From Azolla caroliniana (taxonomy: Eukaryota > Plantae > Polypodiophyta), in assembly GCA_043228905.1 (NCBI GenBank), contig JBHGNT010000004.1, forward strand, positions 10,044,001 through 10,108,000: a stretch of DNA of 64,000 nt. Reading direction: 5' to 3'. The notes beneath the pieces were generated by a model. The model had not been told where the DNA came from, made no database searches, and was given only the letters and a program-made list of their open reading frames with translations. The position numbers and the translations under genes are program-made. This document shows, piece after piece, positions 1,175 to 63,746 of the stretch. Position 1 is the first letter of the stretch; every line of letters starts with the position of its first letter.

Positions 1175-2078
1175 TGTCGTAGTGTATTTCGTACACTACG
1201 TGAAAAAGTAAAAATAATATAACCGATTTAATTACATATAAATAAATAAAATAAGAATATTAAGATATTTATCACCAATAAATAAAATAAGAATATCAAG
1301 ATATTTATCACGTGCATAGGGCAAGATTCGAACCATGTACCTCCACGTAGCCAAACTTCAACTTTACCATTATGCTACCTTATCTTTAGTGTTCTATAAA
1401 TAGATTTAATAACTATAAGTGCTTTATTTGCGCCTACCTTTATTAAAAGGTAAATCATGTATTTTTAGAGTGCGTGAATATTTTATAGAAAAACGCAAGC
1501 GACTAAAAAGTGACTCATGCACATCTAGCGTGCATGAGCACTATATTTAGCAAATAAAAGCAAGGATTAGAAAAGCATCACATGCACATTTAGTGTGCAT
1601 GAACATATTAGAAAAAAAGCATGTAGCTATGCTTAGTCTCTCCCATCACTACATAAGGATGGGGAGCACAATGTAATAGGTGTGTGAAAAATATTTGGGA
1701 AATTGGATATATTTCCTAAAACACCAACAATCAATAAAATATACTCGTGGGATTCACGAAGTTTAAGATAATCTATCTCTTTCAATCTAAATTCATATTC
1801 TTACATAAATATTGATTAATGTAATACTTGTGGGATTCACAAGGTTTGATCTCTTTTCTCAATCTACTCTAATCTATTCTAAATTATTTCAATTTATTAC
1901 TACGATTTAGATAAACTAAAACAATTATACTTGTGGGATTCACAAGTTTCTATATCTCTTTCTTATAATCTATTCATATTCATAACTAGATTAGCCTCAA
2001 ATTCTTCCTCCTCCTAGTCCAAAACCTCGGTGGTTCCCACCCGACTCACGCAACGATCCGGAGCCGAAAGGCACGACA
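1175..2078 (+). repeat. LTR (904 bp) of the Gag-only element
   Basis: TGTCGT/ACGACA termini, preceded by PPT; homologous to 19067, 21811 and 24158 LTRs. Confidence 0.92.
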
Positions 2079-2157
2079 ACGTCAAATCACAAGCTTCAAG
2101 AGAGTTGTCGCCAACAACATCCAAAGGCGCGTCATCGAGCTTCAAGTAGGGAAGACA

Positions 2158-4068
2158 ATGTGGTTGGAGTTCGAGAAAGCGATATTAGCGGAGTTCGCGA
2201 TGGAAGATTTGTCAAGGATGACTCAACATGCCTTGATGAAGTGGATAGAAAAGAAGAATAAGAAGATGAGCGCTTTGAGGGTGTACGACGAATTCGACCA
2301 AATGTTTCGTCATCTCCCCAACACGGACCAAGTGCTGCTTGAAGAGGACAAGACTTTGTACTTCTTGAAAGCTGTGGACATGAAGGATAGAAGAGAATTG
2401 GGGACTCTTCTCGAAGTCGATACCCAAGCAAATGGGCTTGTAGCGGACTGGATCGCGGTGAAGCGGGCGTGCAATAGGCTCGACAAGCGTCGCCAATGGG
2501 TTGATGACACCGACTTGACGGGATCGACTGTCACGGAGAAAGCAAGACCGCCGAAAGTAGTTGAGCCGCCAAAACAAAGTGACGTGGAAGAAAAGAAGAT
2601 TGGTGATGACATCATCGAAGAACTGGCGAAGAAGTTCGAGATGGTCACGCTAGCCAACAGGAATCGTCGGGGCCCCAAAGGAAAAGAACCCTTTAGATGC
2701 ATGTGGTGCGATGGCATGGACCACATGAGAAGGGATTGCGCGAGCCTTCGAGAGGCGATCCGACAAAATATCGTATACATAGATGACAACATGATCTGCT
2801 CGACTGAAACTCGAAGACCCCTGCAGGTGAATTTCGGAAGAGGAAGAATGAAGAAATCTATAGAAGATGTTGAGGCGACTCATGTGGATGCGATGCACTA
2901 TGCTACAACGGTCGGAATAAGAGTCGGGAAAGACAGAAATGAAGCTGCGAAAGTGGGAGAAAAGTTTTGGTCTTCCGTTCTCGAGTATGAGAAGATGGGA
3001 AAGGTCACATCGAACGAGGTAGAGCTTACAGACCGAAGCATGCAAAGCATAACCGGGTGGTCGGATCCGGTGGATGACACCACCATACTCGCGGAAGTGA
3101 TATGCGACAACCATGACGTGTTTGTCGAAGAAAAGAGAAAAAGAATAGAAGAGCAAGGCCCATCAAAAAGACATGAAACAAGGAACACGAAAAAGAAAGA
3201 AGATGCAAAAACGAGTCAATCTTTGCAAATGGAGGAAGGAGATGCTAGCCGAAAAGCGGAGTCAAGCAAACGAGTCGAAGAAACGGTTCGGCCCATGAAG
3301 ATTGGTGTCGAAGACCCCGCTCGAAAGACAAGGACTATGCCTACCTATAAGCTAAGGTCGGACATAGAGCAGACGACAGACCTAAAGAAGATTCTCGAGG
3401 AACACGTTCTTGACAACCACGTGACCTTGTCCTTGAGGGAATTACTCAGCATTATGAAGGAGTTCCACGACACGATCGTGGACCTTGTTAAGTGGAGAAG
3501 GCAACAATCGAACGAAGACGAAGAGAAGCCACTAAAAGCGAAAGCAAATGCCATAACGATGGCAAGAGACGAAGTCGATGAAGAAATGGTCGACAACCAC
3601 TATACCCGACCTCATTGGGCACGAGCGACAACGGAGAAGCCGGTGAAGATCGGGGAGAAGAAAGAGACAATGGTAGCCTTGATCGACCACGGCTCGGAGA
3701 TAAACCTCATGTCAACCGACTTCTACAAAAAATGAAGATGGCCAATCAATACAAATCACAGATGGAAGATTCGCCCGACAACAAAGACTACGGAGGACTT
3801 GTACAGAGCTTGTCCCAATGTTAAAGTCGCGATTGGGGATGTGGAGATGGATCAACACTTCTTCGTGCAAGAATCGGCGTCGCATCCTGTCATCCTAGGA
3901 CAACCGTATATTACATCATCTCGGATGGAAATCAAAGTGTTCGACAATGGTGCAGCATTTGCTCGAATAAAGAGTCTTGACAACCAAAGATCTGTTCAAT
4001 TCCTAATAATGCGAGCTAATCATGAAAGAAATCGAGATAGTCTTGGAGGTGAATCCTCGGATTTTTAG
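2158..4068 (+). pseudogene. gag-protease ORF, disrupted
   Basis: ORFs 2158-3735 and 3799-4068 carry the zinc knuckle and both halves of the aspartic protease (DHGS; VILGQP). Confidence 0.85.
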
Positions 4069-4121
4069 AGCGGACTATTGAAACATGGGGCACAAATAGT
4101 CTGAGCGATCACAAGTCCCCA
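4059..4121 (+). promoter_or_regulatory. Putative -1 ribosomal frameshift signal (G_GAT_TTT plus stem/pseudoknot)
   Basis: In-frame G GAT TTT immediately before the TAG at 4066-4068. 9-bp stem 4071-4079/4095-4103; loop TGGGG (4086-4090) complementary to CCCCA (4117-4121). The -1 frame is open to about 4313. Confidence 0.65.
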
Positions 4122-4293
4122 CAAGAAAGAGGAGAGCGTGGATTGCGAGGAGAAGCAACATGTGTCACACCTAGTGGCACATGTAAACTAGTACTACCCG
4201 ACAAGAAGGACAAGCGTCGAATACAAGAATTCGAGAAGATGCTGAAAGAAGAAAACATAATAGAAGAAGAAGAGTTTGTGACTCATACATATT

Positions 4294-7200
4294 ATGGAAG
4301 AAGCCTCATTTAACGACACCATCGGCGAAATCGAGGACGTCGTGGACTTGAGCTATCTTGACCACCAATGCATGATTTCGGTTAAATCTGTCAACATGTA
4401 CGCTATCATCGATGAATACTATCGTGACATCTTGATGGACGAAACCGAAGTCAACACAAAATATAAAACGGTGGATAAGAAGATCAAGCCAGTTGCGGTT
4501 CCGTTACCGGAAGATAGCTGGCAAAAGATGAAGGAAGTTGCTAATGATCCAAGTTTAAGAGATCCGAAGACAATAGGTCATATCTTCACTGAAGAGACGA
4601 AGGGAAAGTTACGAGTTGGAAGGGAGGATTTCCTCCTCCCTGAAGAGGAGCGAAAGTTTCTTGAAATGATTGAAAGGCATGGGAAAGCCTTCGTGTTCTC
4701 TCCCCAGGAAATCGGATGTGCTGACCCAAAGATTATAGAGCCGATGGTGATCTTCACAGTGCCGCATGTGCCTTGGAATTTGAAACCGATACCAGTTCCA
4801 AGAGTGCACCTTCCGAAGCTGATCAAGCTCTTAAAGGAGAAAGTGAATATGGGTATTCTAGAACCGTCGAATGCTCCTTAATCTAATAGGTGGTTCACGG
4901 TGTCGAAGAAGAATGGATCATTGCGATTCATCCAAGATCTTCAACCCGTCAACAAGGTGACAATTCGGAATGCTGGAATCGGTTTGAGCGTGGACGAATT
5001 TGCTGAAGCGTTTGCGGGGTGGTCCATCTACTCCATTGGCGATCTCTACGACTAATTCCAATTGGCGATCGACAATCGTGACATTACAACCATGAGGACT
5101 CCGATCGGGCTTGTGCAGATGTGTACCTTACCTCAAGGTGCAACGAACTCGGTGGCTGATATGGTGAATACCATGAACAAGGTCTTGAAGGATTGCATCC
5201 CGGATATCACAATGCCATTCTTGGATGATATTCCGATAAAAGGATGTTTGGATGAGGAGAAAGATGAATCGAAAGATAAGGAAGGGTGTAGAAAGTTTGT
5301 CGTGGATCATATGAAAGATTGCAAAAAGGTGCTTCAAAGGCTCGAAGATGCGAATTTGACATTTTCGGGAGGAAAATCCACTTTCGGGCAACTAGAGATC
5401 TTGGTGGAAGGTCACTTGTGTGGGGCATATGGCCGGAAGCCTTCGCCATCCAAGGTGAACGTGATCCAAGATATGCAAGAAGAATGCGTAAACCAAACGG
5501 AGGTTCGAAGGTTCCTTGGAGCATGCGCATTTTACCATATTTGGATTCCGCACTACGCCCATGTCGCCGAGCCTTTATATGGGTTGCTAAAGAAAAGAAT
5601 GAAGTTCGAATGGCGAGACGAGCACACGAACGCGATGCGAAGATTGAAGAAACTACTTCTTGAAGCTCCAACACTAAGAAAATCCGACTATACCGAAGGA
5701 AAGCCGATTTATATGACTGTCGATATGAGCCCAACTGGAATCGGGTGGGTCATCAACCAAGAAGGAGAAGATAATGTGCGGTATGCCATCCGGTTCAGAG
5801 CAAAGGTTCTCAGCGAACGACAACAAAGATACGCCCAAGTCAAGCGAGAACTTTGGGGTATTGTGTCGGCAGTGAAGACGGACAAAGACGACCTGATCGG
5901 ATCGGAAGTAATAATTGAGACAGATTGTCTCCCAATCCTCGGAATGATCTCAGGATGTGCAACACCAGATCTAGCTATGCTAAGGTGGATCGCCTATATC
6001 AAGTCTTCAAACCCAGAGATCCGCCATATTGCAAGGAAGAAGAACGCCATGGCTGACATGCTGTCGAGGGCAAGATTTGAGAATGAAGGTGACATGGTTT
6101 CGGAAGATTAAGACGTCACCCTCGACTTCTTCAAGATGGCTCCACTATCGGCGGAAGACAAGGGCACGCTAACCCTCCACGCCTTCAACGAGGACGAGTA
6201 CGAAGGGGAGTGATTACTTATCGATAGATTCCTAAGAACGATGACGGCGGATGCTTCGTTGATGAAGGAGGAGGCCCTACAAATCCGGAAGAAAGCCTAC
6301 CAATACTTCTTGAAGGGAGGATTCCTTTGGCGACACCCAAAAAGAAGGACAGGAATACCACGTTGAATGGTGGTGAAGAAAGAAGAGCAAGTGACACTAA
6401 TGACCGAATTCCACGAGAGTGCCTGGGCAGGTCATAGAGGAACATGGGTGACGTTCAAGAAGTTGAAGGAGAAGTACTGGTGGCCAAGCATGTACAAAGA
6501 TGTACTCCATTTCGTGACCACATGCGAAACATGCCAAGTACATTCGAATATCCATCATCGTGATGAGCTACGACCGACATACCCGCTCACCATATACTTC
6601 AAATGGTTGGTGGATCTGGTCTCAATGCCAATGGGAGTGGGACAAATGAAGTACTTAGCTCTGGCAAGAGAAGACTTGACAAATCAAGTGGAAGGACGAG
6701 CCTTGACAAATAAAACGACGTTGGCTGTTTGCAAATTTCTACTCGAAGAGGTTGTCTGTCGATACGGATGTGTGGGAAAGATAGTTGCCGACCGAGGGGA
6801 GTTGGATGCACACGAAGCAACGGAGCTCTTCGAACGACTAGGTGTGAAGCTCTCCCTTACGACTGCCTACAATCCAGAAGCGAATGGGAAGATCGAGCGA
6901 GGGCATGGACCTATCGTCAAAGCCATCGTACGAGCATGCAACGGTCGAGTAGGGAATTGTCCATGACTATTACCCTATGCCTTGTGGGCTGTAGAACGAC
7001 ACACAGCTCGGTGACGGGGTATATGCCAACGGAGCTTATGTATGGACAAAAGCCAGTAATGCCCATCGAAAGGACGATTGCCTCATGGGTAGCGATACCA
7101 TGGGAGAACGAGATGAGCCGAGAAGAGTTATTAGCAGCACGAATAAGGAAACTTGAAAGGAGACCTGAAGATCTAGAAAAAGCGCGAAAGATGTTGGAGG

Positions 7201-7547
7201 CAACCCAAGTGAAGAACAAAATTCGGTTCGACAAGACGCATCGACTACGTCCCATGAAGATCGAAGAAGGAGATTGGGTATTGGTCTACGACAACAACCT
7301 TGACAACCAACACAGTACAACAAGGAAGTTTGCAAGAAGATGGTTCGAACCGTATATAGTGATAAGTGCCAACGACAATGCAACATACCACCTTGCGGAG
7401 CTAGATGGATCAAGGCTGGCCATACCCATTGCGGGGAAAAGAGTAAAAATTTTCAAGAAAAGACAAGACGAGGATCCTGACCTCGATCACCTCGACGATG
7501 AAGGTAATAGGGCAAATGTGAATGAAGATGTGGAAGAATCTGATTAA
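4294..7547 (+). pseudogene. pol (RT-RNaseH-integrase), disrupted
   Basis: ORF fragments 4294-4881, 5062-6111, 6367-6966 and 6729-7547 with colinear gypsy pol motifs. Confidence 0.9.
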
Positions 7548-7619
7548 TCACCGTCGCTGAAATCTTGCACTCTCTCTTCTTGGCACGTACCGGAGGACGT
7601 GTGGTCTGGTGGGGGTGGA

Positions 7620-8900
7620 TGTCTTGAAGATTTTCGGCAATAGTGTGAAACTTGTAAGGAACATACGAAATCGAGCGTGGTTCTTCTCACGAAATATAAA
7701 ACAATAATAGTAAAGATACTATCTTAAATAAGTTTAATATATTGATACAAAAAGATGGAGGTCTTGAAGAGCTTCTAAATGTGCTTTACTACGTAGGAAA
7801 CAGACATCTAAGTGTCAAGTTGTGTGGGTATGAAGTTTGCAAAGAAGAAGAGAAAAATATGTGATATCCCACATAGACAGGACAAATAAGGAACCCACCA
7901 TATATAATGAAGAGCAAAAGCTATTATCTTTGTGTTTATGTGTGGAGTATAGAAAAAGTTAAGTTGTATGACTTAACGAATAGATGAAGTTGAATGCATA
8001 TAACTATGTGTTTTGGACAAATCCGGCAACGGTGTCCGACGACGGTGACTAATAATAAAAAACATATATATATGTGTGTATATTCAAAAGGAGTGCAAGT
8101 GAAGACTTGATCCTTGCACCTCCACATTGAGAGTTTATAGAATTACCACTAGGCTATGTTATTTCTTTAGAATTGTTTTCCCTATCATTATAGTTTTACA
8201 TGTAAATTCTCATACTAGAGCTTAATTGAGTGAGATGTGATGCATGAGCGCCAAATGGCAAACATGCATCACATGCATTCCATGCATTGTATGCATGACT
8301 TGTACCCTCACATGCATCATGTGCATGGGTGTGTCTATAAGAGGATGGATGAAAAGGATAAAAGGGATGTTATGTTTTTTTTCAAGAATTTAAGAAGAAA
8401 AATTCGTTCTCTATTTGATTATATATCTTGTCTCTCAAATCTAAAGTTAAAAGTTCGATCTTATCTCTCTCACTCTCTATCTCTCGCCATATTAATCTTA
8501 TCTCAATCTCTCTCCCTCAATCCATCTTAAATCATTTCTCGCTAAACATGCATTGTATGCATGACTTGTACCCTCACATGCATCATGTGCATGGGTGTGT
8601 CTATAAGAGGATGGATGAAAAGGATAAAAGGGATGTTATGTTTTTTTTCAAGAATTTAAGAAGAAGAAAAATTCGTTCTCCATTTGATTATATATCTTGT
8701 CTCTCAAATCTAAAGTTAAAAGTTCGATCTTATCTCTCTCACTCTCTATCTCTCGCCATATTAATCTTATCTCAATCTCTCTCCCTCAATCCATCTTAAA
8801 TCATTTCTCACTAAAGCTAGTGTGTGCTTCGAGTCCTTCCGGTCTAGAACCTCGGCGGTTCCGCCTCACGATCCACACATAGTGTCGGATCTTCACAACA
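7620..8900 (+). repeat. 3' LTR of the gypsy element, with internal ~267-bp tandem duplication (8281-8546 / 8547-8815)
   Basis: Starts TGTCTTGAAG after the PPT and ends CTTCACAACA; shares AACCTCGGCGGTTCC with the U5 of a Gag-only LTR. Confidence 0.85.
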
Positions 8901-12614: not shown

Positions 12615-12890
12615 TCGGCAGTGTTCCATTCGGAAAAGAAGGTAACCAAACTTACATTAAGAATGTCTTGCATGTACCAACCATTACGACGAATTTGGTC
12701 TTTGTCAGCCAAATTGTTGAGCAAGGGATGCAAGTTCAATTTAATCAAGGCGGTTGCTTCATCGAGAAAGAGGGTCAACTCATCGCTCGTGGACGAAGAG
12801 AGGGCCGAATGTTCATTCTCGACTCGCACGAGATGAAATTGGCCATGTTTGCAAAAGGCACCAAAGCCGACATCGACATTGGGTTGTGGC

Positions 12891-18832: not shown

Positions 18833-19793
18833 GATACTATGTGGCCTTCATTGACGACTTCTTCAAGCACACCTGCATCTACCCCATGCGGCAAAAGAGT
18901 GAAGTGTTCGGACACTTCCAAAAATTCAAGAGTGGTGTCGAAAAGGAAACAGGTCAACATGTACGATGTCTTCAGTTGAATGGAGGAAAAGAGTACTTCT
19001 CCGATTAATTTTCGGCTTTTCTCCGGAAAGAAGGAATTCGGCGAGAGTTTTCGTGTTGACATACGTTGTCGTAGTGTATTTTGTACACTACGTGAAAAAG
19101 TAAAAATAATATAACCGATTTAATTACATATAAATAAATAAAATAAGAATATTAAGATATTTATCACGTGCATAGGGCAAGATTCAAACCTTGTACCTCC
19201 ACGTAGCCAAACCTCAACTTTACCATTATGCTACCTTATCTTTAGTGTTCTATAAATAGATTTAATAACTATAACTGCTTTATTTGCGCCTACCTTTATT
19301 AAAAGGTAAATCATGCATTTTTAGAGTGCGTGAATATTTTATAGAAAAAAGCAAGCAACTAAAAAGTGACTCATGCACATCTAGCGTGCATGAGCACTAT
19401 ATTTAGCAAATAAAAGCAAGGATTAGAAAAGCATCACATGCACATTTAGTGTGCATGAACATATGAGAAAAAGCATGTAGCTATGCTTAATCTCTCCCAT
19501 CACTATATAAGGATGGGGAGCACATTGTAGTTTTTGTTGATTATTTTTCTATAATGATCAATCAATCTAAAATATTCGTGGGATTCACGAATTTGCTAAA
19601 ATAATTCTCTCTTACTACCTAAATATTGACTAAATATACTAAACTCGTGGGATTCACGAGATTTTTATCTTATAACTCTTTATACCTATTCTTTACTAGC
19701 CTTATTTGTATTTTTCTTTTCTCCTAGTCCAAAACCCCGGTGGTTCCCACCCGACTCACGCAAACGATCCGGAGCCAAAAGGCACGACATAGT

Positions 19794-19811
19794 TGGTGAA
19801 CCCGACGTGAA
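19794..19811 (+). promoter_or_regulatory. Primer binding site, tRNA-Trp
   Basis: TGGTGAACCCGACGTGAA is complementary to the 3' end of plant cytosolic tRNA-Trp (recalled sequence); identical at 22398-22415 and 61315-61332. Confidence 0.85.
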
Positions 19812-19827
19812 GACGGGTGGCAAGGAG

Positions 19828-21810
19828 ATGGAGAATCAACAAGAGGCAATGAGCATAACGATGATGATGATGTTCGAGCGGATGCTACAAGAACAACGAG
19901 TGATGTCGGAGATCACGGGGGCAGTAAAGCGGCTCGTACAACGAAACGGACAATTCAACGGAAACGATGTGTCACGCTATCTACGTGACTACAAGGCGGA
20001 GATGATACGATGTGGGATACCGGAAGGATTGCAAGTGACATCCTTTAATCGGGTGGCCACGGATGAGCTACAAGAGAGAATCCACAAGATACGGCAACAA
20101 AACTCGACATGGGGGTCATTCGAAGAAGCTTTACGAGAGTCATATGATTACAAGAGATCGAAGGGACAAGATCGGCGAGAATTCGACGAATGGGTGGCAT
20201 CGGAGAAGACCCACCGAAGTGCAACACAAGCATTCCTAGAGTTCGAGCATCGTTTTGCTCGACTCTCGGAGCGGGAACAACGATTGGTGGGAGAAGATAA
20301 AGTCCTAATGTTCGTAAAATCGATCGATCGAAAAGAAAGGATGGACATCGGGATCAAACTCGAAGACGATGAAGGTACGAATGGTCTTACCGAAGATTGG
20401 GCCGAAGTCCAAAGGGTATGCCGGAGACATGATGAGAGGAAGATGAGAATCTTGTCAACGACATGGCCGATGAAGGATGGTCGATTGAAGACAAACGATG
20501 GAGCCGATATGAAGGCCGAAATACAACATGATGGTCCGACGGAAGAGGGTGTAAAACAAGCTACCCTCTTGTCTTGCGAAAGAACAACGACAAAGGATAA
20601 GGCCGATAACCCAAGTGTAGAAGAAGATTTCGGAATACAAGTGTCCGAAACATCGGGTGAAAAAGGGGTAAGCATAATTGATGTTTGCATAATTGATGCA
20701 GTGAAAGAGAGCAAGGAGGACTTGATTGAGGAGGTCACCAAGAAAGATGACATCGAATCGAAGGTGGCTATGGACGAATCAATGGCGGATGGCCATATCG
20801 AGATTTCTCCACCACTGATTCCAGAGACTCCGGCGGTTGCGTTCGAAAGGCAACGTGAGACCGAAGAGACGGAAGGTGGTGGAGAGAAAACAAAGGTCGA
20901 AGCCGATTCATACGACGGAGAGATAGCCGAGAAGGAGGCTATGGTTGAAATGACAGAGGATGATAATACCGAGGATTCCTACCCACTAATTCTAGAGACT
21001 TCGGCGGTTGTGTCCGAGAACCAACGTGAGACCGGAGAGACGGGAGGTGGCGGCAAGAAAGGTAAAGTCGGAAGCCGGTTCGGATGGAAGGTGATCCGGA
21101 CGGGATTCCGATCCGAAAGAAAGTCTAACCGGGTAAAAGAGGATTCGACCGAAAGTCGACCCGAAAGAAAGCCGAACCGAAAGCAAGAGAATTCGGCCGA
21201 AAGACGACACAAACGAAAGCCGAACCGGGCGAATGAGGATTCGGCCGAAAGACGACCCGAAAGAAAGCCGACCCGAAAAGGGGTCGAATCGGTTCTGACT
21301 TGGCCGAACGCGAATATGGATGGAAGCCGACCTAGCCGAAAGCCAATCGGACGAGATCGATCCGGAAAGAAGCTAATCCGACTCAACCGGAGGTTGGACC
21401 GGTCGAGGCTGGTGAAAACGAGGAAAAGAAAGCCAACCGAAACCGAAACCGATAGATCGAAACCGGGGCGGAAGGAGACCGACTCAATCAAAACCGAACA
21501 ACCGATTCCGATTCGGCCGAATACGAATCCGATCGGAAGCCGATCAAACCAAAAGTTGATCGGACGAGAGCGATCCGGAAAAAAGTCAAGGTTGATGAAG
21601 ACAAGAAAGAGCCCAGTAAAAGACACTACCACGAATGAACAAAGAATATGGTGGATCGGATGGCGACAATGGTTCGGGTGGAAAGAATGGGTCTACTCAA
21701 AATGGAGAGACAAAGTTGACATAGCGGGACAAACGGAGGATAAAGGGGAGACAACGAGCATCGGCAACTTCGGCACATACCGGAGGATGTGCGGGTTCGG
21801 AGTGGGCTAG
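19828..21810 (+). CDS. Gag N-terminal domain fused to acidic, Arg/Lys-rich and Trp-rich regions
   Basis: Intact ~660-aa ORF. N-terminus (MLQEQ...FNGNDVSRYL...NGLTEDW) aligns with gags at 61426 and 2158; no zinc knuckle; stop abuts LTR2. Confidence 0.8.
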   Translation: MENQQEAMSITMMMMFERMLQEQRVMSEITGAVKRLVQRNGQFNGNDVSRYLRDYKAEMIRCGIPEGLQVTSFNRVATDELQERIHKIRQQNSTWGSFEEALRESYDYKRSKGQDRREFDEWVASEKTHRSATQAFLEFEHRFARLSEREQRLVGEDKVLMFVKSIDRKERMDIGIKLEDDEGTNGLTEDWAEVQRVCRRHDERKMRILSTTWPMKDGRLKTNDGADMKAEIQHDGPTEEGVKQATLLSCERTTTKDKADNPSVEEDFGIQVSETSGEKGVSIIDVCIIDAVKESKEDLIEEVTKKDDIESKVAMDESMADGHIEISPPLIPETPAVAFERQRETEETEGGGEKTKVEADSYDGEIAEKEAMVEMTEDDNTEDSYPLILETSAVVSENQRETGETGGGGKKGKVGSRFGWKVIRTGFRSERKSNRVKEDSTESRPERKPNRKQENSAERRHKRKPNRANEDSAERRPERKPTRKGVESVLTWPNANMDGSRPSRKPIGRDRSGKKLIRLNRRLDRSRLVKTRKRKPTETETDRSKPGRKETDSIKTEQPIPIRPNTNPIGSRSNQKLIGRERSGKKSRLMKTRKSPVKDTTTNEQRIWWIGWRQWFGWKEWVYSKWRDKVDIAGQTEDKGETTSIGNFGTYRRMCGFGVG

Positions 21811-22431
21811 TGTCGTAGTGTATTTCGTACACTACGTGAAAAAGTAAAAATAATATAACCGATTTAATTACATATAAATAAAAAAAATAAGAATATCAAA
21901 ATATTTATCACGTGCATAGGGCAAGATTCAAACCCTATACCTCCACATAGCCAAACCTCAACTTTACCATTATGCTACCTTATCTTTAATGTTCTACAAA
22001 TAGATTTAATAACTATAAGTGCTTTATTTCCTAAAACACCAACAATCAATAAAATATACTCGTGGGATTCACGAAGTTTAAGATAATCTATCTCTTTCAA
22101 TCTAAATTCATATTCTTACATAAATATTGATTAATGTAATACTTGTGGGATTCACAAGGTTTGATCTCTTTTCTCAATCTACTCTAATCTATTCTAAATT
22201 ATTTCAATTTATTACTACGATTTAGATAAACTAAAACAATTATACTTGTGGGATTCACAAGTTTCTATATCTCTTTCTTATAATCTATTCATATTCATAA
22301 CTAGATTAGCCTCAAATTCTTCCTCCTCCTAGTCCAAAACCTCGGTGGTTCCCACCCGACTCACGCAACGATCCGGAGCCGAAAGGCACGACACAGTTGG
22401 TGAACCCGACGTGAAGGCGGGTGGCAAGGAG

Positions 22432-24090
22432 ATGGAGAATCAACAAGAGGCGATGAACATGATGATGATGATGTTCGAGAGAATGCTACAAGAACAACGC
22501 GAGATGTCGGAGATCACGACAGTAGTACAACGGCTCGTGCAACAGAACGGGCAATTCGATGGAAAGGACGTGTCACGCTATCTACGTGACTACAAAATGG
22601 AGATGTTGCGATATGGTATCTCAGAAAGATTGCAAGTGTTATCTTTCAACCGGGTGGCTACGGATGAGCTTCAAGAGAGAATCCACGAGATACGACAACA
22701 AAGCCCGATGTGGGAGTCCTTTGAAGAAGCTATACGAGACACATATGACTATCTAAGACCGAAGCGGACGAGGACATGGTCCACGAACGGCGGTCAACAG
22801 TGGGTGAAAAGCGGCCACCGACTACCACCGAAGGAGAGCTTGATGCGGAAGGGTTCGGAGATGCATGAAAAGTCGCAAGTCGACATTGAAGGGGAGCTTA
22901 AAACCGAACCAAAGTCGAGGCCAACAAAGGACGAGGAGGAGGAAGATCGAGGACGAAAGGGTATCCCCACACCGGTTCCAGAGACTTCGGCGGCTGTGCC
23001 CGTGCACCAACGTGAGACCGGAGAGACGGAATGTGTCGGTGGAAAAGTGGAGGACCGGAAGGGCAACGAGGAAGACAAAGTAAATGAGCACGAACGAAGG
23101 GATTCCTTCACCATTGTTTCGGAGACTTCGGTACTGGAGCCCGGGTGTCGACATAACACCGAAGATAAGGAAAGTGGCGGCAACGAAACGAAGGTCGAAG
23201 CCGATGCATACGAAGGAGAGATAGCCAAGGAGAACATGGCTATGGGTGAAACAACGGAAGATGATAATACCGAGGATTCCTACCCACTAATTCTAGAGAC
23301 TTCGGCAGTTGTGTCCGAGAACCAACGTGAGACCGGAGAGACGGGAGGTGGCAGCAAGAAAGGTAATATCGGAAGCCGGTTTGGATGGAAGGTGATCCGG
23401 ACGGGATTTCGATCCGAAAGAAAGCCGAACCGGGTAAAAGAGGATTCGACCAAAAGTCGACCCGAAAGAAAGCTGAACCGAAAGGAAGAGAATTCGGCCG
23501 AAAGACGACACAAACGAAAGCCGAACCGGGCGAATGAGGATTCGGCCGAAAGACGACCCGAAAGAAAGCCGACCCGAAAAGGGGTCGACTCGGTCAAAAC
23601 CGATCGACTGAGTCTGACTTGGCCGAACGCGAATATGGATGGAAGCCGACCTAGCCGAAAGCCGATCGGACGAAACCGATCCGAAAAGAAGCTAATCCGA
23701 CTCAACCGGAGGTTGGACCGGTCGAGGCTGGTGACAACGAGAAAAAGAAAGCCAACCGAAACCGAAACCGATAGATCGAAACCGGGGCGGAAGGAGACCG
23801 ACTCAATCAAAACCGAACAACCGATTCCGATTCGGCCGAATACGAATCCGATCGGAAGCCGATCAAACCGAAAGTTGATCGGACGAGAGCGATCCGGAAA
23901 AAAGTCAAGGTTGATGAAGACAAGAAAGAGGCCAGTAAAAGACACTACCACGAATGACAAGGGCCAAGAATATGACGAGAGAGAACAAAGAATATGGTGG
24001 ATCGGATGGCGACAATGGTTCGGGTGGAAAGAATGGGTCTACTCAAAATGGAGAGACAAAGTTGACATAGCGGGACAAAACGGAGGATGA
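22432..24090 (+). CDS. Second Gag-derived protein (shorter Gag part, same basic and Trp-rich C-terminus)
   Basis: Intact ~552-aa ORF from the ATG after the PBS; paralogous to 19828-21810 with a different middle region. Confidence 0.8.
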   Translation: MENQQEAMNMMMMMFERMLQEQREMSEITTVVQRLVQQNGQFDGKDVSRYLRDYKMEMLRYGISERLQVLSFNRVATDELQERIHEIRQQSPMWESFEEAIRDTYDYLRPKRTRTWSTNGGQQWVKSGHRLPPKESLMRKGSEMHEKSQVDIEGELKTEPKSRPTKDEEEEDRGRKGIPTPVPETSAAVPVHQRETGETECVGGKVEDRKGNEEDKVNEHERRDSFTIVSETSVLEPGCRHNTEDKESGGNETKVEADAYEGEIAKENMAMGETTEDDNTEDSYPLILETSAVVSENQRETGETGGGSKKGNIGSRFGWKVIRTGFRSERKPNRVKEDSTKSRPERKLNRKEENSAERRHKRKPNRANEDSAERRPERKPTRKGVDSVKTDRLSLTWPNANMDGSRPSRKPIGRNRSEKKLIRLNRRLDRSRLVTTRKRKPTETETDRSKPGRKETDSIKTEQPIPIRPNTNPIGSRSNRKLIGRERSGKKSRLMKTRKRPVKDTTTNDKGQEYDEREQRIWWIGWRQWFGWKEWVYSKWRDKVDIAGQNGG

Positions 24091-25226
24091 AGGGGAGACA
24101 ACGAGCATCGGCAACTTCGGCACATACCGGAGGATGTGCGGGTTCGGAGGGGGCGAGTGTCGTAGTGTATTTCGTACACTACGTGAAAAAGTAAAAATAA
24201 TATAACCGATTTAATTACATATAAATAAATAAAATAAGAATATTAAGATATTTATCACCAATAAATAAAATAAGAATATCAAGATATTTATCACGTGCAT
24301 AGGGTAGGATTCGAACCATGTACCTCCACGTAGCCAAACTTCAACTTTACCATTATGCTACCTTATCTTTAGTGTTCTATAAATAGATTTAATAACTATA
24401 AGTGCTTTATTTGCGCCTACCTTTATTAAAAGGTAAATCATGTATTTTTAGAGTGCGTGAATATTTTATAGAAAAACGCAAGCGACTAAAAAGTGACTCA
24501 TGCACATCTAGCGTGCATGAGCACTATATTTAGCAAATAAAAGCAAGGATTAGAAAAGCATCACATGCACATTTAGAGTGCATGAACATATTAGAAAAAA
24601 AGCATGTAGCTATGCTTAGTCTCTCCCATCACTACATAAGGATGGGGAGCACAATGTAATAGGTGTGAAAAATATTTGGGAAATTGGATATATTTCCTAA
24701 AACACCAATTAATATAATCGTGGGATTCACGAAAATAATATAATCTATACTTGTGGGATTCACAAGTTTCTTATATCTTTCTTTCAATCTAAATACATAT
24801 TCTTATCTAAATATTGATTAATCGAATACAATACACTCGTGGGATTCACGAAATTTCTATCTCTCTTTGTAATAATCTATTCATTACTAGCCTCATCTCA
24901 TATTCTTCTTTCTCCTAGTCCAAAACCTCGGCGGTTCCCACCCGACTCACGCAAACGATCCGGAGCCGAAAGGCACGACAACGCCACAACAAAACACATT
25001 AACCAAACGAAAGAATTGGCACATGCTCGAAGTAGCACGAGTCATGCTTAACGATAAGCACATGTCGAAGTCGTACTGGGCAGAAGCTGCCAACACAGCC
25101 GCCTACCTAATGAACCGGTGTACAACATCTGACGTGCATGAGGTTACCCCGCACGAGATGTTTTTCGGAAAGAATCTGGATATATCACATGTTCGGATTT
25201 TTGGCTCCATTGCATACCTGCACATC

Positions 25227-44741: not shown

Positions 44742-45291
44742 AGGGGTTGAACCCATGACCTCCTGGTCTCCATCCGGCAACCTTACCAACTGAGCTACAT
44801 CCAGGGGTTGAACCCATTATCTCATGGTCTCCATCGGCCAACCTTACTAATTGACCTACATCCAGGGGTTGAACCCATTATCTCCTGGTCTCCATCGGCC
44901 AACCTTACCAACTGAGCTACATCCAGGGGTTGAACCCATTATCTCATGGTCTCCATCGGCCAACCTTACCAACTGAGCTACATCCAGGGGTTGAACCCAT
45001 TATCTCCTGGTCTCCATCGGCCAACCTTACCAACTGAGCTACATCCAGGGGTTGAACCCATTATCTCATGGTCTCCATGGGCCAACCTTATCAACTGAGC
45101 TACATCCAGGGGTTGAACCCATTATCTCCTGGTCTCCATCGGCCAACCTTACCAATTGAGCTACATCCAAGGGGTTGAACCCATTATCTCCTGGTCTCCA
45201 TCGGCCAACCTTACCAATTGAGCTACATCCAGGGGGTTGAACCCATTATCTCCTGGTCTGCATCGGCCAACCTTACCAATTGAGCTACATC
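44742..45291 (-). repeat. Tandem array of 9 x 61-bp tRNA-like (A box/B box) units
   Basis: Units start 44742, 44803, 44864, 44925, 44986, 45047, 45108, 45170, 45231. Minus-strand unit: TGGATG-TAGCTCAGTTGG-TAAGG...GGTTCAACCCC. Confidence 0.9.
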
Positions 45292-46143: not shown

Positions 46144-46660
46144 AATTACTATTCATCAGGTGAACTTAACACGATGGCATCGAAGATCTCTGACATGACA
46201 ACTTGCAATGAAGAGAAGCCAAGGGAGAAGAATGCTCAAGAAATTGTCGATCCATCCAGCAAAACAAAAGAAAATTACTATTCATCAGGTGAACTTAACA
46301 CAATGGAATCCAAGATCTCTGAGATGACAACTTGCAATGAAGAGAAGCCAAGGGAGAAGAATGCTCAAGAAATTGTCGATCCATCCAGCAAAACAAAAGA
46401 AAATTACTATTCATCAGGTGAACTTAAGACAATGGAATCGAAGATCTCTGATATGACAACTTGCAATGAAGAGAAGCCAAGGGAGAAGAATGCTCAAGAA
46501 GTTGTTGATCCATCCAGCGAAACAAAAGAAAATTACTATTCGTCAGGTGAACTTAACACAATGGCATTGAAGATCTCTGATATGACAACTTGCAATGAAG
46601 AGAAGCCAAGGGAGATGAATGCTCAAGAAATTGTTGATCCATCCAGCAAAACAAAAGAAA
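46144..46660 (+). repeat. 4 x 129-bp coding tandem repeat
   Basis: AATTACTATTC units start at 46144, 46273, 46402 and 46531. Confidence 0.95.
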
Positions 46661-52583: not shown

Positions 52584-55500
52584 TATCTCTAATAGTAATG
52601 ATGAGCCCTCTTGCACATTCGCTAGCATTTTGGAGCTCCTACCTCAAATAAAAATAGTGGCGCTTCTTTTATCATGTGCATCATCGCTTTCTCTTTTCGT
52701 ATGCACCTATTCTCGTCCTAGCAAGGGCATGTAATGCGAGATCAAATGTTTTTTACTTCATTATGTCTCAGAATTTCCCTTCGTCAACCCTAGCCATGTT
52801 CAAACCATTAACCTCATCATTCAAGGGGACAAGTCTCATCCCTTGAGCTATCTTCATCAATTTTTCTTAGGACAATCTTCCTTCAAAATCTTCCTCTATT
52901 GCAACACTAGACCTCTAGGCACTTTTCTCACTTTGGATATGCCACATCCAGAGGCTAATAAGGACATCAAGGACCAAGTGAAAGGAACAAACGTAGTTGA
53001 AAGGGGCAAAGAGCAAGAAAAACCCACAGTAAGAAAGCTATATATAAGTAACTTTATTGTGGAATTTTAGTTTCTTCTTGAAGCTTAAATCTTGCCTCCT
53101 AATACCTAAGTCTTCCATCCTATCTGTAGAGTGATTGATTAAGGTTAAGTTTTCATTCACTTAATCTTAATCACTCACTATCTTGCACGTTGTTGTGATG
53201 TATGTATGTGGTGTATCGAGAACTGTAGTTTGACAAAGAGGTGACTCAACTCTATATCAAAAGCTCAACCATTCTCCATCTACCACTGCATGTATTTCTC
53301 ATTTAATCTTAGGGGTCATTTTGTAAAAACCACCATATTCGTGGGTATTATTTGGTGAACCCATTTCGTAAAAGGAGCATTTCTTGATTAAATCAAATGT
53401 TTAAGGTCTTAACCTTCCATTACTGGTGTTATTATTAATCATGTGTGTTTTGTGCAAATAATCTGTGATTAAATCTGATGACTATTAATTAATTCTACAC
53501 CATTATTTGCAAAACGAGAGGGGAGGGAGAGGAGGAACACAGACAGGGCTGGCGGTTTAGCCCCCGAAAGTCACCCACCTCAAACCTTCGTTTCCGCGGG
53601 GATTTATACCTCCTTGGAAGAACACAGAACATTCGCCCCACTCTAATCCTCAAATTCCTGAGCTACGAAACGAACAAAAAACCCCAGCTCTATATCTACG
53701 AAACACTAATAAAAGGGATTTTACAAAAGGACATCTTGGGGAGAGGTGAGAAGAGTGAGTAGTGTTCACACATCGAGAAGCAGTTCGCATGACTCTTGCA
53801 TCTTGACACTTGATAGGAGGATACTCGGACACGGTAAAGTTCTATTGTTCCTCAAGGTAGTGGATTCTCGAGAGAGGGAGAAGAAGGGCATCCTGCTTGA
53901 GAATGAAGACAAACACACCACGGATTGGGTCACAGTAAAAAGATAGTGTAGTTGCTTTGCTAAGCAATGACAATTGTATGGTGGGAATCATCAAGCAGTC
54001 AAGGTATGTGGGAAGGGAACCCTATGCATGATACAAAGGGCACCAAAATGATGGAACGTAGAGGACACGCAAACGTGGGCTCAAGGCCAACAATGAAGGT
54101 GGTAGAAGAACCAGTTGGGGGTTGGGGAATAGATGGACTCACGAAGATGGTAAGGGAGCACCAAATAGCCCAAGCAAGGAGAGATGACATGTGCTCTCCT
54201 TACGATTGACGGACTCTACATTTCTGTAGAGATGTATGTGGTGCGATAACCCCGACCACCAAAGAAGGGAATTTGAAGGCTTTCATTTGGCTCTAGGAAA
54301 CAAGGTTTATTCGATGAAAACGAGACGCCCCTTGAATTTGAACTCTAGTTAGAGGTATGAAGAGGCTAAGACGTAGAATGTCGAAGCCATCCACTACCCG
54401 ACATTGGCTTGGATTCGAGTTGGGAAAGAGGCCTAGAGCCAAGAAGAGGAGGCGGAGTTTTGGCCATCTATCATTAAGATTCTCACAAAGGGGACACTCT
54501 AAAAGGATGAAGCGGACCAAGCCGAAAAAAGGTTCCAAGATGCGGCACGTGGTACGGTAGAAATAGATAAAAGTAAATGTAAATATGTATTACGGAAAAT
54601 GAATAATAATATATAATGACAAAAGGTAAATAATGTTTATTTGATCTAGTAATTGCGATATGTTTGTTCGATCTCGCCCAAATGACTATTTAGTTGGAAA
54701 AAAAATTCGTCTTCATTTCATTCAGCGAATCACACGTAGGGATATCGAGAAAACGCAAAATGCAAAAGGGATTTCATAACTGATTGATTGAGTAGTTGCT
54801 CTCAAACCACCCGAAAATGAATATTTGTTATTTGACCCATATCCAGCAATTAAAAAACCCAAGGTGTTATGTGCATAACCATAAGTAATGATGAAGTAGG
54901 TTTTCCGTAGTTTTTCCTAATCTTCTGATGAGTGTGTGTGGGTTAATTCTGAAAGGAACGAGAGTATGAATTGTAATATTCAATTCCACGCGGTGGGATA
55001 ACTATTAAGTGTGTTATCACTTGACAACTTCAAATAAAGCAATCAATTCCGAACAGAGTAGGGCCCAAGGTTTTTGTTGATATAAAGAACAACAAACGAC
55101 ACATGTTTTCACATATTTGTTTGAGTGATTCCTAGAACAACAAACGAGGCCTAACTACTCGATCCAGAAACGATGGGAGCGCGAAATTCGGACATTATGC
55201 AAAAAACAACTCTCTCTATTCTTTCTTATCATATACAACTATGTCTTAGAATTCTATGTGTTCGCGTACTCTAAATTAAATTTGTGTTCCTTATAGATTA
55301 CCTATACGTTGGTGTGTATGGTTGTGTTTTTGCATCCATATTTTTAATCACCTCAAAGAGTTTGATTACTTTTTGGCATCAAGCTATGTCTGATTAGAAC
55401 TACCTCGCCTATATGGAAACCCAAAGAAAAAAAGAATTTGAAAAAAAAAACTTGTGTTTTTTTCCCCAGTGGGATGTGCGAGAGAAAAAAATATTATGCT

Positions 55501-58296: not shown

Positions 58297-58658
58297 TGTG
58301 TAAAGTCATACACAATTATTACCATTGACACAATTATTTTAAAAACAGAGATTTCAGTACAATTCGATATGTCAATGTAACGAATTCAAATTGCAGTACA
58401 ATTCAAAGTATTTTCATCACAATTCGGTTCTTAGTATCGAATTCACGTTCACAGTTTTTACTTTCTTTAATTATAGTTTTTTTTGAAAAAAAGAAACGGT
58501 AAACCTAAATTCGATATTAAGTATCGAATTGTGATGCAAACGGGATGTTTTCATCAAAATTCAACACTAAGTATCGAGTTGTGAGGAAAACAGGGTGTTT
58601 TCATCACAATCAGGTTTCGAATTGTGATGATTTTTCATCACAATTGGATACTTACTGT

Positions 58659-58724
<66 letters not shown>

Positions 58725-59470
58725 TAGAATATTCTAGAGTGTTATCTATTACTTATAAATTGGGATCTACCACTCATCCCAAACCTAAATTGGTTCTTCA
58801 AACTGTCAAGAGAGAGAGAGAGAGAGAGAAAGAAGATAGAGAGATAATTGAAAAGGAATTATTATATTGAAGAGTAAATGGATTACAAAGAGTAGGCAAC
58901 AGAGTACTACAAAATGGCGTTGAACCAATTTAGGTTTGGGGTGAGTGGTAGATCCCAATTTATAAGTAATAGAGAACACTCTAGAATATTCTAGGTTATC
59001 CTAGAATGTAGAGTAATCTAGAAGATCTCTAGAGTATTCTAGAAGGTTCTAGTGTATAGAATATTCTAGGTCATTCTAGAATGTAGAGTAATATAGAATA
59101 TTCCTATGATATTAGATTTCATATTCTAAAAACTATAAAAGAATATTAATACAATGGCTAAGGATTTGACATGTGTACAACAATGTCATGGGTTCAAATC
59201 CTTTCGAGGCATGATGTGAGTGTTATCATGACACTTACGAAAATAAATAAATAAATACTTTAAACCTGAACTCAATACTATGTATCGAAGTTAGGTTTCT
59301 AATTGTGATATTTTAATCACAATTCGATATTGAGTAACGAATTTAGATTTAAAGTTTTTTTTTCTCGAACCAAATTGTGATGGAAACACTTTGAATCTGA
59401 GTATCGAATTGTACTGAAATCTCTGTTTTTTAAATAGTTGGATGATAATCATTGTGTATGACTTTACACA
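58297..59470. mobile_element. Inner foldback/MITE-like element
   Basis: Inverted ends TGTGTAAAGTCATACACAAT extending about 70 bp; many ACAATTCGATA subrepeats; no TSD seen. Confidence 0.6.
58656..59233 (-). mobile_element. Aberrant solo LTR of the TGTCATGA family
   Basis: TGTCA...TGACA termini, TSD CTTAC; homologous to 63377-63854; contains an internal inverted duplication. Confidence 0.85.
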
Positions 59471-60367: not shown

Positions 60368-63300
60368 TGTTGTGAAGTTGTTGCTTCATGATGTCAAAAC
60401 AATGTCAAAAATCTATAGAAGTACATTTCCCATATGAAGCTTATGACGAGGAGCATATGTAAATTTTCGGTTTGTGAATCGAAGTTCAGGAGCCCAAGAT
60501 ACAACCTTCAGAAAGATTAATGTTACTCGGGACACAAATGTAATTATGTCAAAAGGGGGAGTCAAAATTAAATGAGGGCTATTTCTATAATTTCTCAAAT
60601 GTACAACTACAAAATCGAATTTGTAGAATCAATAGATAATAATAATAATAATATATATATATAAAAATACAATTGCCTCAAGAGGGTGGTAGGGCAATTG
60701 ACCACCCTATAAAAGCCACGCCCATGGTGGTTAAAGAGGAAGAGTAGAGGGAGAAAAGGAAGAGGAGAAGGAAGGAGGAAGAAAAGGCGAGTGAGGAAGC
60801 TCACGTGGGTGTGGGATGCACAACTTGCCAAAGAAGATGGTGGCTTGCATAAACAAAGACAAAAGTTAAAGAAAAGAAAAGAAATACAAGGAAAGGAAGA
60901 ACTTGAAGTGGTGTATCACAAATGCCTCTTTGCAAACAAAAGGTTGTGAGTTTGAATCCTCTCAAAACAATTTCTTTTGGTAATCAATTTTTGTAATATA
61001 AATTTGGTTTGTATAAAGAGAAAGAGAAAGAGAAGTAAATAAATAGAAATAAAAGAAGTTGAAGTGGTCTACCTCAAACACTTCCTCTCAAACAGAGGTC
61101 GTGAATTCAAGTTTGCCAAGTAACTTTTGGCAAATAAATATTATAAGTGGTGTTTTACAAATAAATTTCTTTTCACGTCAACGTCGCATCTATCTTCCTT
61201 TCTCGGCTTCTTGTCATCGCACCATTTGCGATTATGCCTTGTCATCCTGATCATCCCCGAGTCACAGAACCCCGACAGTTGCGACACACAACCACAATCT
61301 TTACGACATAAATTTGGTGAACCCGACGTGAAGTGTCGCCGACAAGGGGAGTTTCGGAGTTAAAATTTTCCAAAGAGAAGGTCGGAAAATCAAAGAAAAA
61401 GGCGGATAAAGGTGCCAACACAGAGATGGCGAATAAGGGCTTCAATGAAGAGATGGCAAGTTTCATGATGACGATGATGAATTAGATGCTGCAGGAGCAA
61501 AGTGCGATGAATCGGATAGAAAGTGAGTTAACACTCGCCGTACAAACGGTCATCGAGAGGATAAGCAGATTTGATGGCGAGGACATCACTCGGTTCCTCG
61601 AGGTCTACGAATACAAGATGGCCAGTAGAGGGGCAACCGGAGTACAGATAGTGTCACATATCAACTGGGTGTGCACAGTTGATGTCCGAGCAAGGGTAAC
61701 AGAATTATTAGAGAAATTCCGTGAAGATTGGCCCGGGTTTCGTCTAGCATTACTTGATGAATATATGCTAGACGATCGAACCAGAATGTCAAAGAAAAGC
61801 TTTCTTGAATGGACCGAGAAAGGGGGTAAAGGACTCTTAGTCTCAGAGTTGTTGAGGGAGTTCGAGAAAAGATATAATGCGCTCTCGGTAAAAGACCGAG
61901 AACTATTACAGTAAAAAAAGGTGGATTTATTCATCCGAGCGGCAGATAAATCTTTTAGAAAAGATATCACTATCCTTCTAGAAACCAGACAAACACGACT
62001 AGTTTGGTGTCCAATTGGGCGAAAGTACCCGAGGCTTGTCGAGTACTAAGGAGGGAGCTAAGGATGGAGGATGGCTATGACAATAGAATAATGATAACAA
62101 CCAAAGAACATCCAAAACAAGAATCGGGAACCCGAACGGATGTTGGCAAAGGAAAGGAGCCAAAATCTGGGATTGATGAACTGATAAAGGGAATGCGGGA
62201 TCTACAACTCAAGTTCACAAAGCTTGAGAAGGGTGAAAGCTTGGGTGTGAGACAAAAGCCCAATGAAGGAGAAAAGGGTGAATTCATCCGTTGATGCATA
62301 TGGTGCGATAGCACGAAGCACTAAAAAAGGGATTGTCAGAGCCATAAGGAAGCATTAGAAAGAAATGTTATCTTCTATCAAAATGGGAGAATACACTTCT
62401 CGGAGACCCGAAAACCCCTAAAAACCCACTTTGGCAAAGGTGGGATGAAGAAAGTGATGGAGGACAAAGAGTCGATGAATGTTCAGGCAATGTACTATTT
62501 CCGGATTGAAGGTTGATGATCCCCAAATTGGATCAGAATTCTGGGGGAAAGTGATAAAGTCTACTAACGACAAACGAGTCCAACCACAGGACTTACGGAA
62601 GGTCGACGATGAGATCAGGAGTAGAACTGGGTGGAATGACCCAGTAGAGTCACTCAATGCAATCACCAAGATAGCAGGGGTGAATGCCCACGAAGTGACA
62701 ACAGAAGAAAAGAGAAGGAGAACTGAGGAAGCGGGACTTTTAAGAAAACCTGAGACCCGAGAGCAAAAGACACGGGAAATGGAACGAGTTGCTGCGGAGG
62801 CAATGAAAGAAGACAAAGGTAAGTAGAAGGTCGCCCCGTCATTCAAACTCGCCTCCGACATAGAAACATCCACCAACCTAAAGCATGCACTTGAATCTAG
62901 GATTCTCGATAGTAAAGTTGAGTTAACACTCCGAGAAGTACTAGGGATCGCGAAGGTGGAATTTCATGAAGTGATCATTGATGTGATTCGTAGAAAAAGA
63001 CAAGTGATTTAAGAAATGGGTGGAGTAAATACCGTCACAATATGGGAGGAAGATGAAGATATGGAGACTGCATTGTTAGCCGGGGTATGGAGAGCTGACA
63101 TACAATGTAGTCATGAAGAGGAAAGTAGCCATTACACCCGCACACACTAGGATCGGGCGACAACCCAGGCTCCAGTCAGAATTGGTGATCAGATGGAACC
63201 GTGTGTGGCACTCATCGACCACGACTCCGAGATTAACATCATATCATCTGATTTCTACAATCCGGGGAGATGACCAATAGAAAGAAACCACGGGTGGAAG

Positions 63301-63376
63301 GTCAGAGCAACGACTGAGGTCGTGGAGGATTTATGTAGCGCATGCCCCAATATTAAAGTTACAATTGGGAACGTGT
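60368..63376 (+). mobile_element. 5' part of a degenerate Trp-primed gypsy element (LTR, PBS, gag-PR)
   Basis: LTR 60368-61308 (TGTTGTGAAG...TTTACGACA), PBS 61315-61332, gag from 61426 with stops, CIWCD knuckle, ALIDHDSE; interrupted at 63377. Confidence 0.88.
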
Positions 63377-63746
63377 TGTCATGATGACACTTACATACGA
63401 TTTGGATTTACAAGGAATAGAACCCACAACCTTATTATATACGTGTGAAGTTCTTAACCATTGTAATGATATATTTATGTGTAAAGAATTTATAAACTAT
63501 ATAGAATATCATAAAGTATTCTAAAGTACTCTATGTTCTAGAATATTCGAGAGTGCTCTATATTCTAGAACGTTCTAGAATATTCTAGCATAATCTTTAC
63601 TCTAAGATTTTCTAGAATACCCTAGTAAGACTTATAAATATGCATCTAATAATAAGGGATGAACCAATTTGGTTTAACGCCATTCTAGAGCTCCCTTGTT
63701 GTTTATTGTATTCCATCTTCTAGTGCAATACATTATCTTTACAATA

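Follow-up and report, generated by a model that had tools for sequence, protein, structure and literature searches.

A/B modules in the LTRs of the window

The window analysed here is a stretch of 64,000 nucleotides from Azolla caroliniana (contig JBHGNT010000004.1, positions 10,044,001 to 10,108,000 of the forward strand), and all coordinates count from its first letter. It holds a pile of plant long terminal repeat (LTR) retrotransposons, with Copia elements, a chromodomain Gypsy element and Gypsy open reading frames (ORFs) carrying DUF4100, whose named reverse transcriptase (RT) relatives are from Riccia and Adiantum (52-64%). Several of the LTRs contain a pair of short motifs like the A and B boxes of tRNA-type RNA polymerase III (Pol III) promoters, here called the A/B module. 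Judged from the sequences, these conserved modules are a real, lineage-wide feature of Phygy-like Gypsy LTRs and occur in at least one other LTR lineage.

Seven main modules are found in the window, all antisense to their LTR, and their sequences and coordinates were verified as given in the original prediction, each with a spacing of 43 or 44. Four belong to family A and lie on the minus strand at 1324..1377 (LTR 1175-2078; E 1.9e-9), 19180..19233 (LTR 19067-19789), 21924..21977 (LTR 21811-22393) and 24307..24360 (LTR 24158-24980). The last one has perfect boxes, and the second and third carry T in place of C56. In the LTR at 21811-22393 the promoter core with its RY and TATA motifs is deleted, and the module and both LTR ends are retained. 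The family B module is at 8103..8156 (minus strand) in the 3' LTR at 7620-8900, with a score of 49.9. The module C1 of family C (the TGTCATGA family) lies on the plus strand at 59147..59201, has two mismatches in the A box and is antisense because its LTR is on the minus strand. The degenerate module C2 is at 63414..63468 (minus strand) in a family C-like LTR (63377-63854). We infer the placement of the modules in U3 from the positions of putative TATA boxes.

Dinucleotide shuffles of each LTR (n = 300) gave no equal match for the four family A LTRs, family B and C1 (0/300 each) and a single one for C2 (1/300). In the same test for spacing 43/44, shuffles equalled the real sequence in 95-300 of 300 cases for four other LTR families of the window, in which no module was found; three of these flank Copia coding regions and the fourth has a Met-type primer-binding site (PBS). 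A sequence-only model built from 24 modules at other loci gave rough E-values of 3e-11 for B, 2e-9 to 1e-5 for A, 0.004 for C1 and 0.054 for C2.

The LTR of a further family, D (60368-61308), contains two sense modules on the plus strand. The first (60901..60959, spacing 48) lies downstream of a putative TATA at 60707, and its B half alone reaches E 0.033; the second (61057..61114, spacing 47) is weaker. A weaker copy had been predicted at 60900-60963, and a sense module with a spacing of 47-48 does lie there and is retained in the related locus L037, but LTR D fails the 43/44 test (294/300). The other predicted weak copy, at 44305-44363, fell away, as the best score in the region 44000-44740 is 3.2 and is equalled by 256 of 300 shuffles. 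One more degenerate module (52796..52850, minus strand, E 0.015) is located 711 bp past the start of a chromovirus 3' LTR and possibly outside the LTR.

Families A, B and D fit the Phygy lineage of Ty3/gypsy, for which a preference for NCGN target sites is given (Neumann 2019, PMC6317226). This assignment comes from NCGN sites (A and B), LTR ends, PBS and RT relatives. Besides the single extra LTR at 1175-2078, family A forms a tandem LTR-internal-LTR-internal-LTR structure (19067..24980, plus strand) within a Copia element, flanked by ACGT/ACGC. Its internal parts of 1.8-2.0 kb hold gag-like remnants, and it is a non-autonomous relative of the related loci L028 and L029. Family B (2079..8900, plus strand) is a broken gag-pol element, whose 3' LTR is followed by ACGG. 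The target sites of both families (ACGT/ACGC, ACGT and ACGG) are thus NCGN sites.

Family C is a solo-type LTR (58656..59233, minus strand) with an internal duplication and a 5-bp target-site duplication (TSD), CTTAC. The 4-bp NCGN target site of the Phygy lineage was not found for it, nor was an internal domain, and the orientation of its LTR is taken from TATA and CT-rich cues only. It is a repeat of high copy number, and in four read runs it ends sharply at 59233.

The family A insertions in the window, one in gag and one in Copia, lie at NCGN sites, which bears on the idea that Pol III-targeting integrases use the modules as landing pads or decoys, by which other elements or further copies of the same element would be directed to the LTR or kept from it. 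Such targeting has a precedent in TRE5-A, which targets TFIIIC/TFIIIB sites. However, none of the seven modules in the window has an element directly upstream, and no junction is shared at modules among the read-table rows listed, so that we hold this explanation to be very improbable.

Survey of related Gypsy loci

A metagenome scan detected 80 related loci (labelled L), of which 63 had usable flanks and were parsed for the PBS and the polypurine tract. The survey set takes a single 5' piece and a single 3' piece from each RT family (95% identity), leaves out pieces shorter than 150 nt, and comprises 42 pieces of 28 families with 42,099 bases beside LTR ends. The copy-level statistics rest on metagenome contigs.

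Searching this set with a generic box pattern, free spacing of 25-70 and up to two mismatches found 19 pairs at spacing 43/44 compared to 2 at the other 44 spacings. One of the 19 pairs (L079) is outside the LTR proper, and some are the 5' and 3' repeats of one family. The 50 shuffled sets had a mean of 0.0 pairs (maximum 0), and no pair was found in 84,661 coding bases. With up to three mismatches there are 22 distinct modules. Considering LTRs only, 12 of the 24 informative families have a module, in ten of them antisense; five further families were too short. Leave-family-out scoring gave much the same picture.

The module-positive families span 71-93% RT identity, and the spacing is fixed across them. 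On the tree (25 rows), the presence of the module needs six changes, at least four of which are forced by strong branches. Some families with near-identical RT carry alternative U3 cassettes, with and without the module, in contigs that are collapsed assemblies. For example, L041, L042 and L046 have near-identical RT and common LTR ends, and the middle parts of their U3 differ. LTR B (7620-8900) also looks like a mosaic, with a 5' part similar to L003/L005 joined to a core similar to L011. With the collapsed assemblies kept in mind, this suggests that promoter cassettes are swapped among LTRs.

Conservation of the boxes and lack of tRNA structure

That the boxes are more conserved than their surroundings, which had been proposed as a check, is borne out across families. 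In 13 hand-picked pairs of modules, identity is 0.90 in the box cores, 0.57 in the spacer and 0.64-0.65 in the gapped flanks, against a baseline of 0.51 for unrelated sequence, although the value for the boxes is partly circular because they were used for detection. This does not apply to positions 44-47 (tRNA numbering), which are outside the seed pattern and reach 0.92 (p 0.0002 against the spacer). Across the 22 modules these four positions are A in 20, G in 18, G in 22 and T in 20. Furthermore, position 33 is a pyrimidine in 22/22 and position 38 an A in 18/22. At the unscored positions 56/57, C56 is retained in 29 of 36 matches (A57 18 vs T56 3, p 0.0015). In comparisons of whole LTRs, family A matches the distant L069 at the B-box block only and LTR B matches L022 at the module only. 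Within family C, variation stays below 3% at every B-box position in four runs, and at site 59184, where the window copy deviates, nearly all of the depth has the tRNA-like base.

There are no signs of an intact tRNA. ARAGORN detected no tRNA gene in the window and nothing in 57 of 57 loci, and stem pairing of a cloverleaf was not above the permutation level. The Rfam scans gave no tRNA match to the family A module or the L080 LTR and no 5S match in the sequences scanned. Folding of 19 modules resulted in a mean z of -0.53 with one value below -2, and no conserved hairpin was found.

One explanation for such tRNA-like sequence is that the modules are neutral relics of old SINE (short interspersed nuclear element) insertions, passively carried and picked out by the search pattern. 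Their patchy distribution, the decay of family A at C56 and the similar modules outside Phygy-like LTRs (the tandem array described below, L079 and L020) would agree with this, and the use of the boxes for detection inflates their apparent conservation. The search for SINE2 marks in 18 modules, however, found no convincing TSD and no poly(A) nearby, only AT-rich chance repeats of 8-12 nt in six of the 18 and one A run at a distance of 230 nt; old SINE2 insertions could have shed both TSD and tail. Sporadic SINE insertions with TSDs, which would have spoken against the original prediction, were accordingly not seen. As the conservation at positions 44-47, the spacing fixed across families and the single match in 38,045 bases of flank DNA also speak against neutral relics, this explanation is already disfavoured and we rate it as very unlikely.

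The conserved positions outside the boxes are of interest for another explanation, in which the antisense module in the genomic RNA pairs with the D and T arms of a tRNA, either as a second PBS segment or more generally as a site of tRNA pairing that helps with packaging or strand transfer. Positions 44-47, 33 and 38 are single-stranded in tRNA, modules are antisense in ten of the 12 positive families, and for Ty3, pairing between U3 and the T and D arms of the primer is described (PMC5371799). On the other hand, the PBS of these elements already has the full 18 nt. It implies A62 and G64 in the primer, which by stem pairing needs T52 and C50, and the modules have T52 in 0/22, C50 in 0/22 and A62 in 1/22 cases, so that they do not show complementarity to the primer's T arm. 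C61 is retained in 22/22 though this primer base is taken by the PBS, and sense modules retain the same boxes as antisense ones. Scans for the primer tRNA gene pattern gave 0, 0 and 8 matches, and the eight are chance bacterial matches, none of them a tRNA. Pairing with a tRNA is therefore improbable as the role of the module.

Promoter architecture around the modules

The antisense modules are commonly followed by motifs of a putative Pol II promoter. RY motifs (CATGCA) are bound by ABI3/B3-domain proteins. They lie 55-142 bp LTR-3' of the module in 13 promoter-proximal ones of the 20 antisense modules. A putative TATA is found 147-197 bp from the A box in 10/20, including the non-Phygy modules C1 and L009; the distance is 272 bp in family A and about 300-340 bp at two distal modules, and at seven modules there is none in the available sequence. 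For the non-Phygy modules the distances are 181 bp (C1), 163 bp (C2) and 159 bp (L009). In the window, family A has RY palindromes and a putative Pol II TATA at 1516..1657 (plus strand) in the LTR at 1175-2078, and family B has an RY cluster and a putative Pol II TATA at 8241..8343 (plus strand), 85-179 bp from the module; a promoter function is suggested by these motifs. Clusters of CATGCA/TGCATG (1516-1601, 8241-8327 and many loci) are common in Phygy-like LTRs with or without a module.

In five families (L010, L023, L038, L039 and L080) an antisense module is combined with a sense module farther 3', so that the pair faces outward around the core. A sense module only is found in L012 and, on the available piece, in L017, and in L022 a sense copy lies close to the 5' end. 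The mainly antisense arrangement of the modules cannot serve as the promoter of the element itself.

A+T makes up 0.78-0.85 of the 30 bp upstream of the A box (-40 to -11), and a TATA-like word occurs in 8/20 modules compared to 3.6 expected (p 0.015). Together with the retention of both boxes, this could indicate active Pol III genes, whose product would be an antisense RNA of about 100 nt that may, for example, tune the element by pairing with the U3 of the genomic RNA. Pol III units dependent on A and B boxes do exist in the LTRs of foamy viruses (PMC3993851). A run of four T (T4), as in a terminator, is found within 40 nt past box B in 12 of the 20 antisense modules and inside none of the 20, but such runs are not clearly more frequent there than in shuffles (8.3 expected, p 0.067), and LTRs without a module show the same strand skew. 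In addition, the spacer, which would make up most of the RNA, is down to 57% identity, and a conserved fold was not found. That the RNA is the purpose of the module is thus unlikely in our view.

Modules outside Phygy-like LTRs

The window contains a tandem array of nine 61-bp A/B units with spacing 44 (44742..45291, minus strand), which is outside any LTR and was missed in the original prediction. Its last unit gave the sole tRNA match from Rfam (15.8 bits, E 4.4). The array is flanked by a Copia LTR region on one side and a probable host gene (ORF 46138-47766) on the other, and its units point away from the gene, which is the same geometry as that of the modules in LTRs. The ORF has a zinc-finger match and four 129-bp repeats, and is a predicted gene only; no relatives were found among longer proteins, which is weak evidence. 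At 44630-44697 (plus strand) an internally shortened module faces the array and is 81% like the L079 module.

Four modules from the survey were rejected as Phygy-LTR modules since they belong to other repeats. The L009 (3827-4116) and L067 (1661-1856) modules are part of a non-Phygy LTR family beginning with TGTCATAACC, of which the L009 copy is inserted in a Phygy pol. These LTRs have an antisense module with spacing 44 near the 5' end, then an RY palindrome and, in L009, a TATA, and so resemble family C. The L079 module (1353-1428) lies between microsatellites outside a Phygy LTR, so that a further repeat family carries the module. In L020 a fragment resembling Copia RNase H is followed, at 12014-12073, by a module of the antisense type whose A box is weak.

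It had been proposed that different LTR families captured tRNA-type promoters convergently. For A and B this does not apply, as the two belong together as Phygy-like families: they have NCGN sites, their LTR ends are related, and A shares its PBS with the relatives of B. The module is spread across this lineage. Convergence is plausible only for the TGTCATGA family and the L009/L067 LTRs. At most, convergence or cassette transfer may plausibly have taken place between the Phygy-like lineage and the LTRs of the TGTCAT type.

A possible role in keeping the LTR promoter open

We favour the explanation that the modules are selected TFIIIC/Pol III sites which keep the Pol II promoter of the LTR open as chromatin barriers, and give it a probability of about 0.5. 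The B box is a high-affinity site for TFIIIC. TFIIIC would bind the B box of the module and position TFIIIB on the AT-rich DNA that separates module and promoter core. Nucleosomes would be kept off by the complex, which would also stop heterochromatin or read-in transcription, like the barriers formed by tRNA genes (tDNAs) in yeast. Any Pol III RNA from the module would then be a by-product. The modules may originate from an old capture of a tRNA or SINE2, followed by loss, duplication and swapping of U3 cassettes. Both tDNAs and extra TFIIIC (ETC) sites are known to act as barriers (PMC12409998, PMC2040200, PMC6950938) and to limit neighbouring Pol II transcription (PMC4228148), and the tDNA barrier of S. 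pombe works in either orientation (PMC2040200). Shielding of the LTR promoter from silencing, as suggested in the original prediction, fits the geometry.

Several observations weigh against a barrier function. Half of the informative families (12/24) are without a module, and it appears dispensable because near-identical RT families differ in having it. In family A, C56 is T in 22-26% of the depth in three runs and in 20% in the fourth, and among 40 of 78 rows the variants of family A show no deficit in the module relative to the flanks. As TFIIIC in yeast tolerates spacings of 32-93 bp (PMC12409998), canonical boxes do not explain the fixed spacing of 43/44, nor do they account for the conserved positions 44-47, 33 and 38. 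The TATA patterns were picked after inspecting the LTRs, and the plant CAA start motif is not enriched (1/20). Moreover, a strong roadblock in U3 would hinder the synthesis of genomic RNA through the 3' LTR.

A wider form of the barrier explanation, which we offer tentatively and consider possible but not probable, is that coding LTR elements of non-seed plants carry a portable insulator. Outward-facing TFIIIC/Pol III sites would bracket the Pol II promoter and allow it to fire inside heterochromatin, and the same unit would have been reused by unrelated LTR lineages and amplified as the nine-unit array between the transposon pile and the host gene. If true, this would be the first case in plants of a Pol III chromatin barrier, and retrotransposons would have an anti-silencing strategy that acts in cis. 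Modules that protect the promoter would show how retrotransposons stay active in silenced DNA without an anti-silencing protein, and would provide a plant insulator of 55 bp. The barrier question is directly testable, since the LTRs offer many natural variants, with or without module, single or paired, and with C56 intact or mutated.

Further features of the window

The 18-nt PBS of family A (19794..19811, plus strand) is repeated at 22398 and found again in D at 61315. It is common to A, D and most related loci including relatives of B, and we take it to be of the tRNA-Trp type.

The complement of this PBS corresponds to miR894 reads (PMC5846777), and the earliest report of miR894 is from moss. 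Because the PBS is its exact complement, miR894 appears to be a 3' tRNA fragment capable of targeting these elements. An unbroken Copia ORF of 1405 amino acids (14004-18221) lies between LTRs that are 99% identical (13514-14117 and 18232-18832), which indicates a young insertion. Matches to Rfam microRNA (miRNA) families in the window were rejected, as they are below the gathering scores and look like inverted repeats. Beside the family C insertion there is an AT-rich inverted repeat similar to a miniature inverted-repeat transposable element (58415-58536), also with sub-threshold miRNA-family matches. Scans of viral contigs with the integrases of family B and of a chromovirus found no relatives.

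Comparison with known systems

The modules match type 2 Pol III promoters in having the A and B box consensus at a workable spacing. By this consensus (PMC12498455), position 54 may be A or T in moss tRNA, as is the case in family B.

Families A, B and D agree with Phygy as non-chromovirus, non-seed-plant elements with NCGN preference, but tRNA-like LTR modules are absent from the part of the Phygy account available in PMC6317226. Foamy-virus LTRs likewise have A/B-box Pol III units within the LTR of a coding retroelement; these units make hairpin miRNAs and have terminators (PMC3993851), whereas no conserved hairpin or significant terminator was found here. The bipartite PBS of Ty3 is comparable in its U3 sequence complementary to the T and D arms of tRNA (PMC5371799). 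It is primer-specific, however, and the present modules stand beside a complete PBS and mismatch the primer at 50, 52 and 62.

The A and B boxes of tDNA barriers and ETC sites act on chromatin or nearby Pol II units regardless of orientation (PMC2040200, PMC4228148), and ETC sites of C. elegans are located in tRNA-like CeRep3 repeats with both boxes (PMC6950938, PMC12409998). These are host loci or dispersed repeats supported by chromatin immunoprecipitation in yeasts and worms; the modules described here are part of an LTR and known from sequence. For plants, the available text of PMC13578239 describes no such TFIIIC/tDNA barrier function.

The original prediction had named Cassandra, with its 5S promoter, as the analogue. 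Cassandra is similar in being an LTR element of plants whose LTR contains Pol III promoter boxes, and in having tandem LTR-internal arrays like that of family A, but it is a TRIM (terminal-repeat retrotransposon in miniature) whose type 1 promoter drives its own RNA (PMC7215508), in contrast to the antisense type 2 modules found here. The tRNA-derived Helenus is the better analogue. In Helenus/TRIMp3 the LTRs contain tRNA-derived sequence conserved around boxes A and B that is not a functional tRNA, a SINE2 insertion is proposed as its origin, and one family is known outside seed plants, in Selaginella (Kojima 2024, PMC10886601). Helenus elements are non-coding TRIMs of 311-1263 bp, and their boxes are proposed to drive their own transcription. 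The modules studied here share the tRNA-derived LTR sequence with conserved boxes, and differ in that their LTRs measure 0.5-1.5 kb and belong to gag-pol elements, and that the modules are mostly antisense, often occur several together and stand beside a putative Pol II promoter, so that short TRIM size, non-coding nature and an orientation for self-transcription were not found. The same paper mentions that part of a tRNA is contained in 'not a few LTRs' of Repbase, but in the available text analyses TRIMs alone and argues that autonomous partners must use Pol II (PMC10886601). The literature searched, mostly non-subscription, gave no description of such modules in Phygy or other coding plant LTRs, and within what was available of it they appear to be a new variant of tRNA-derived LTR modules, not previously described in coding plant LTRs. 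Even without a barrier function, they widen the range of tRNA-derived modules in LTRs, which would include coding Gypsy elements besides non-coding TRIMs.

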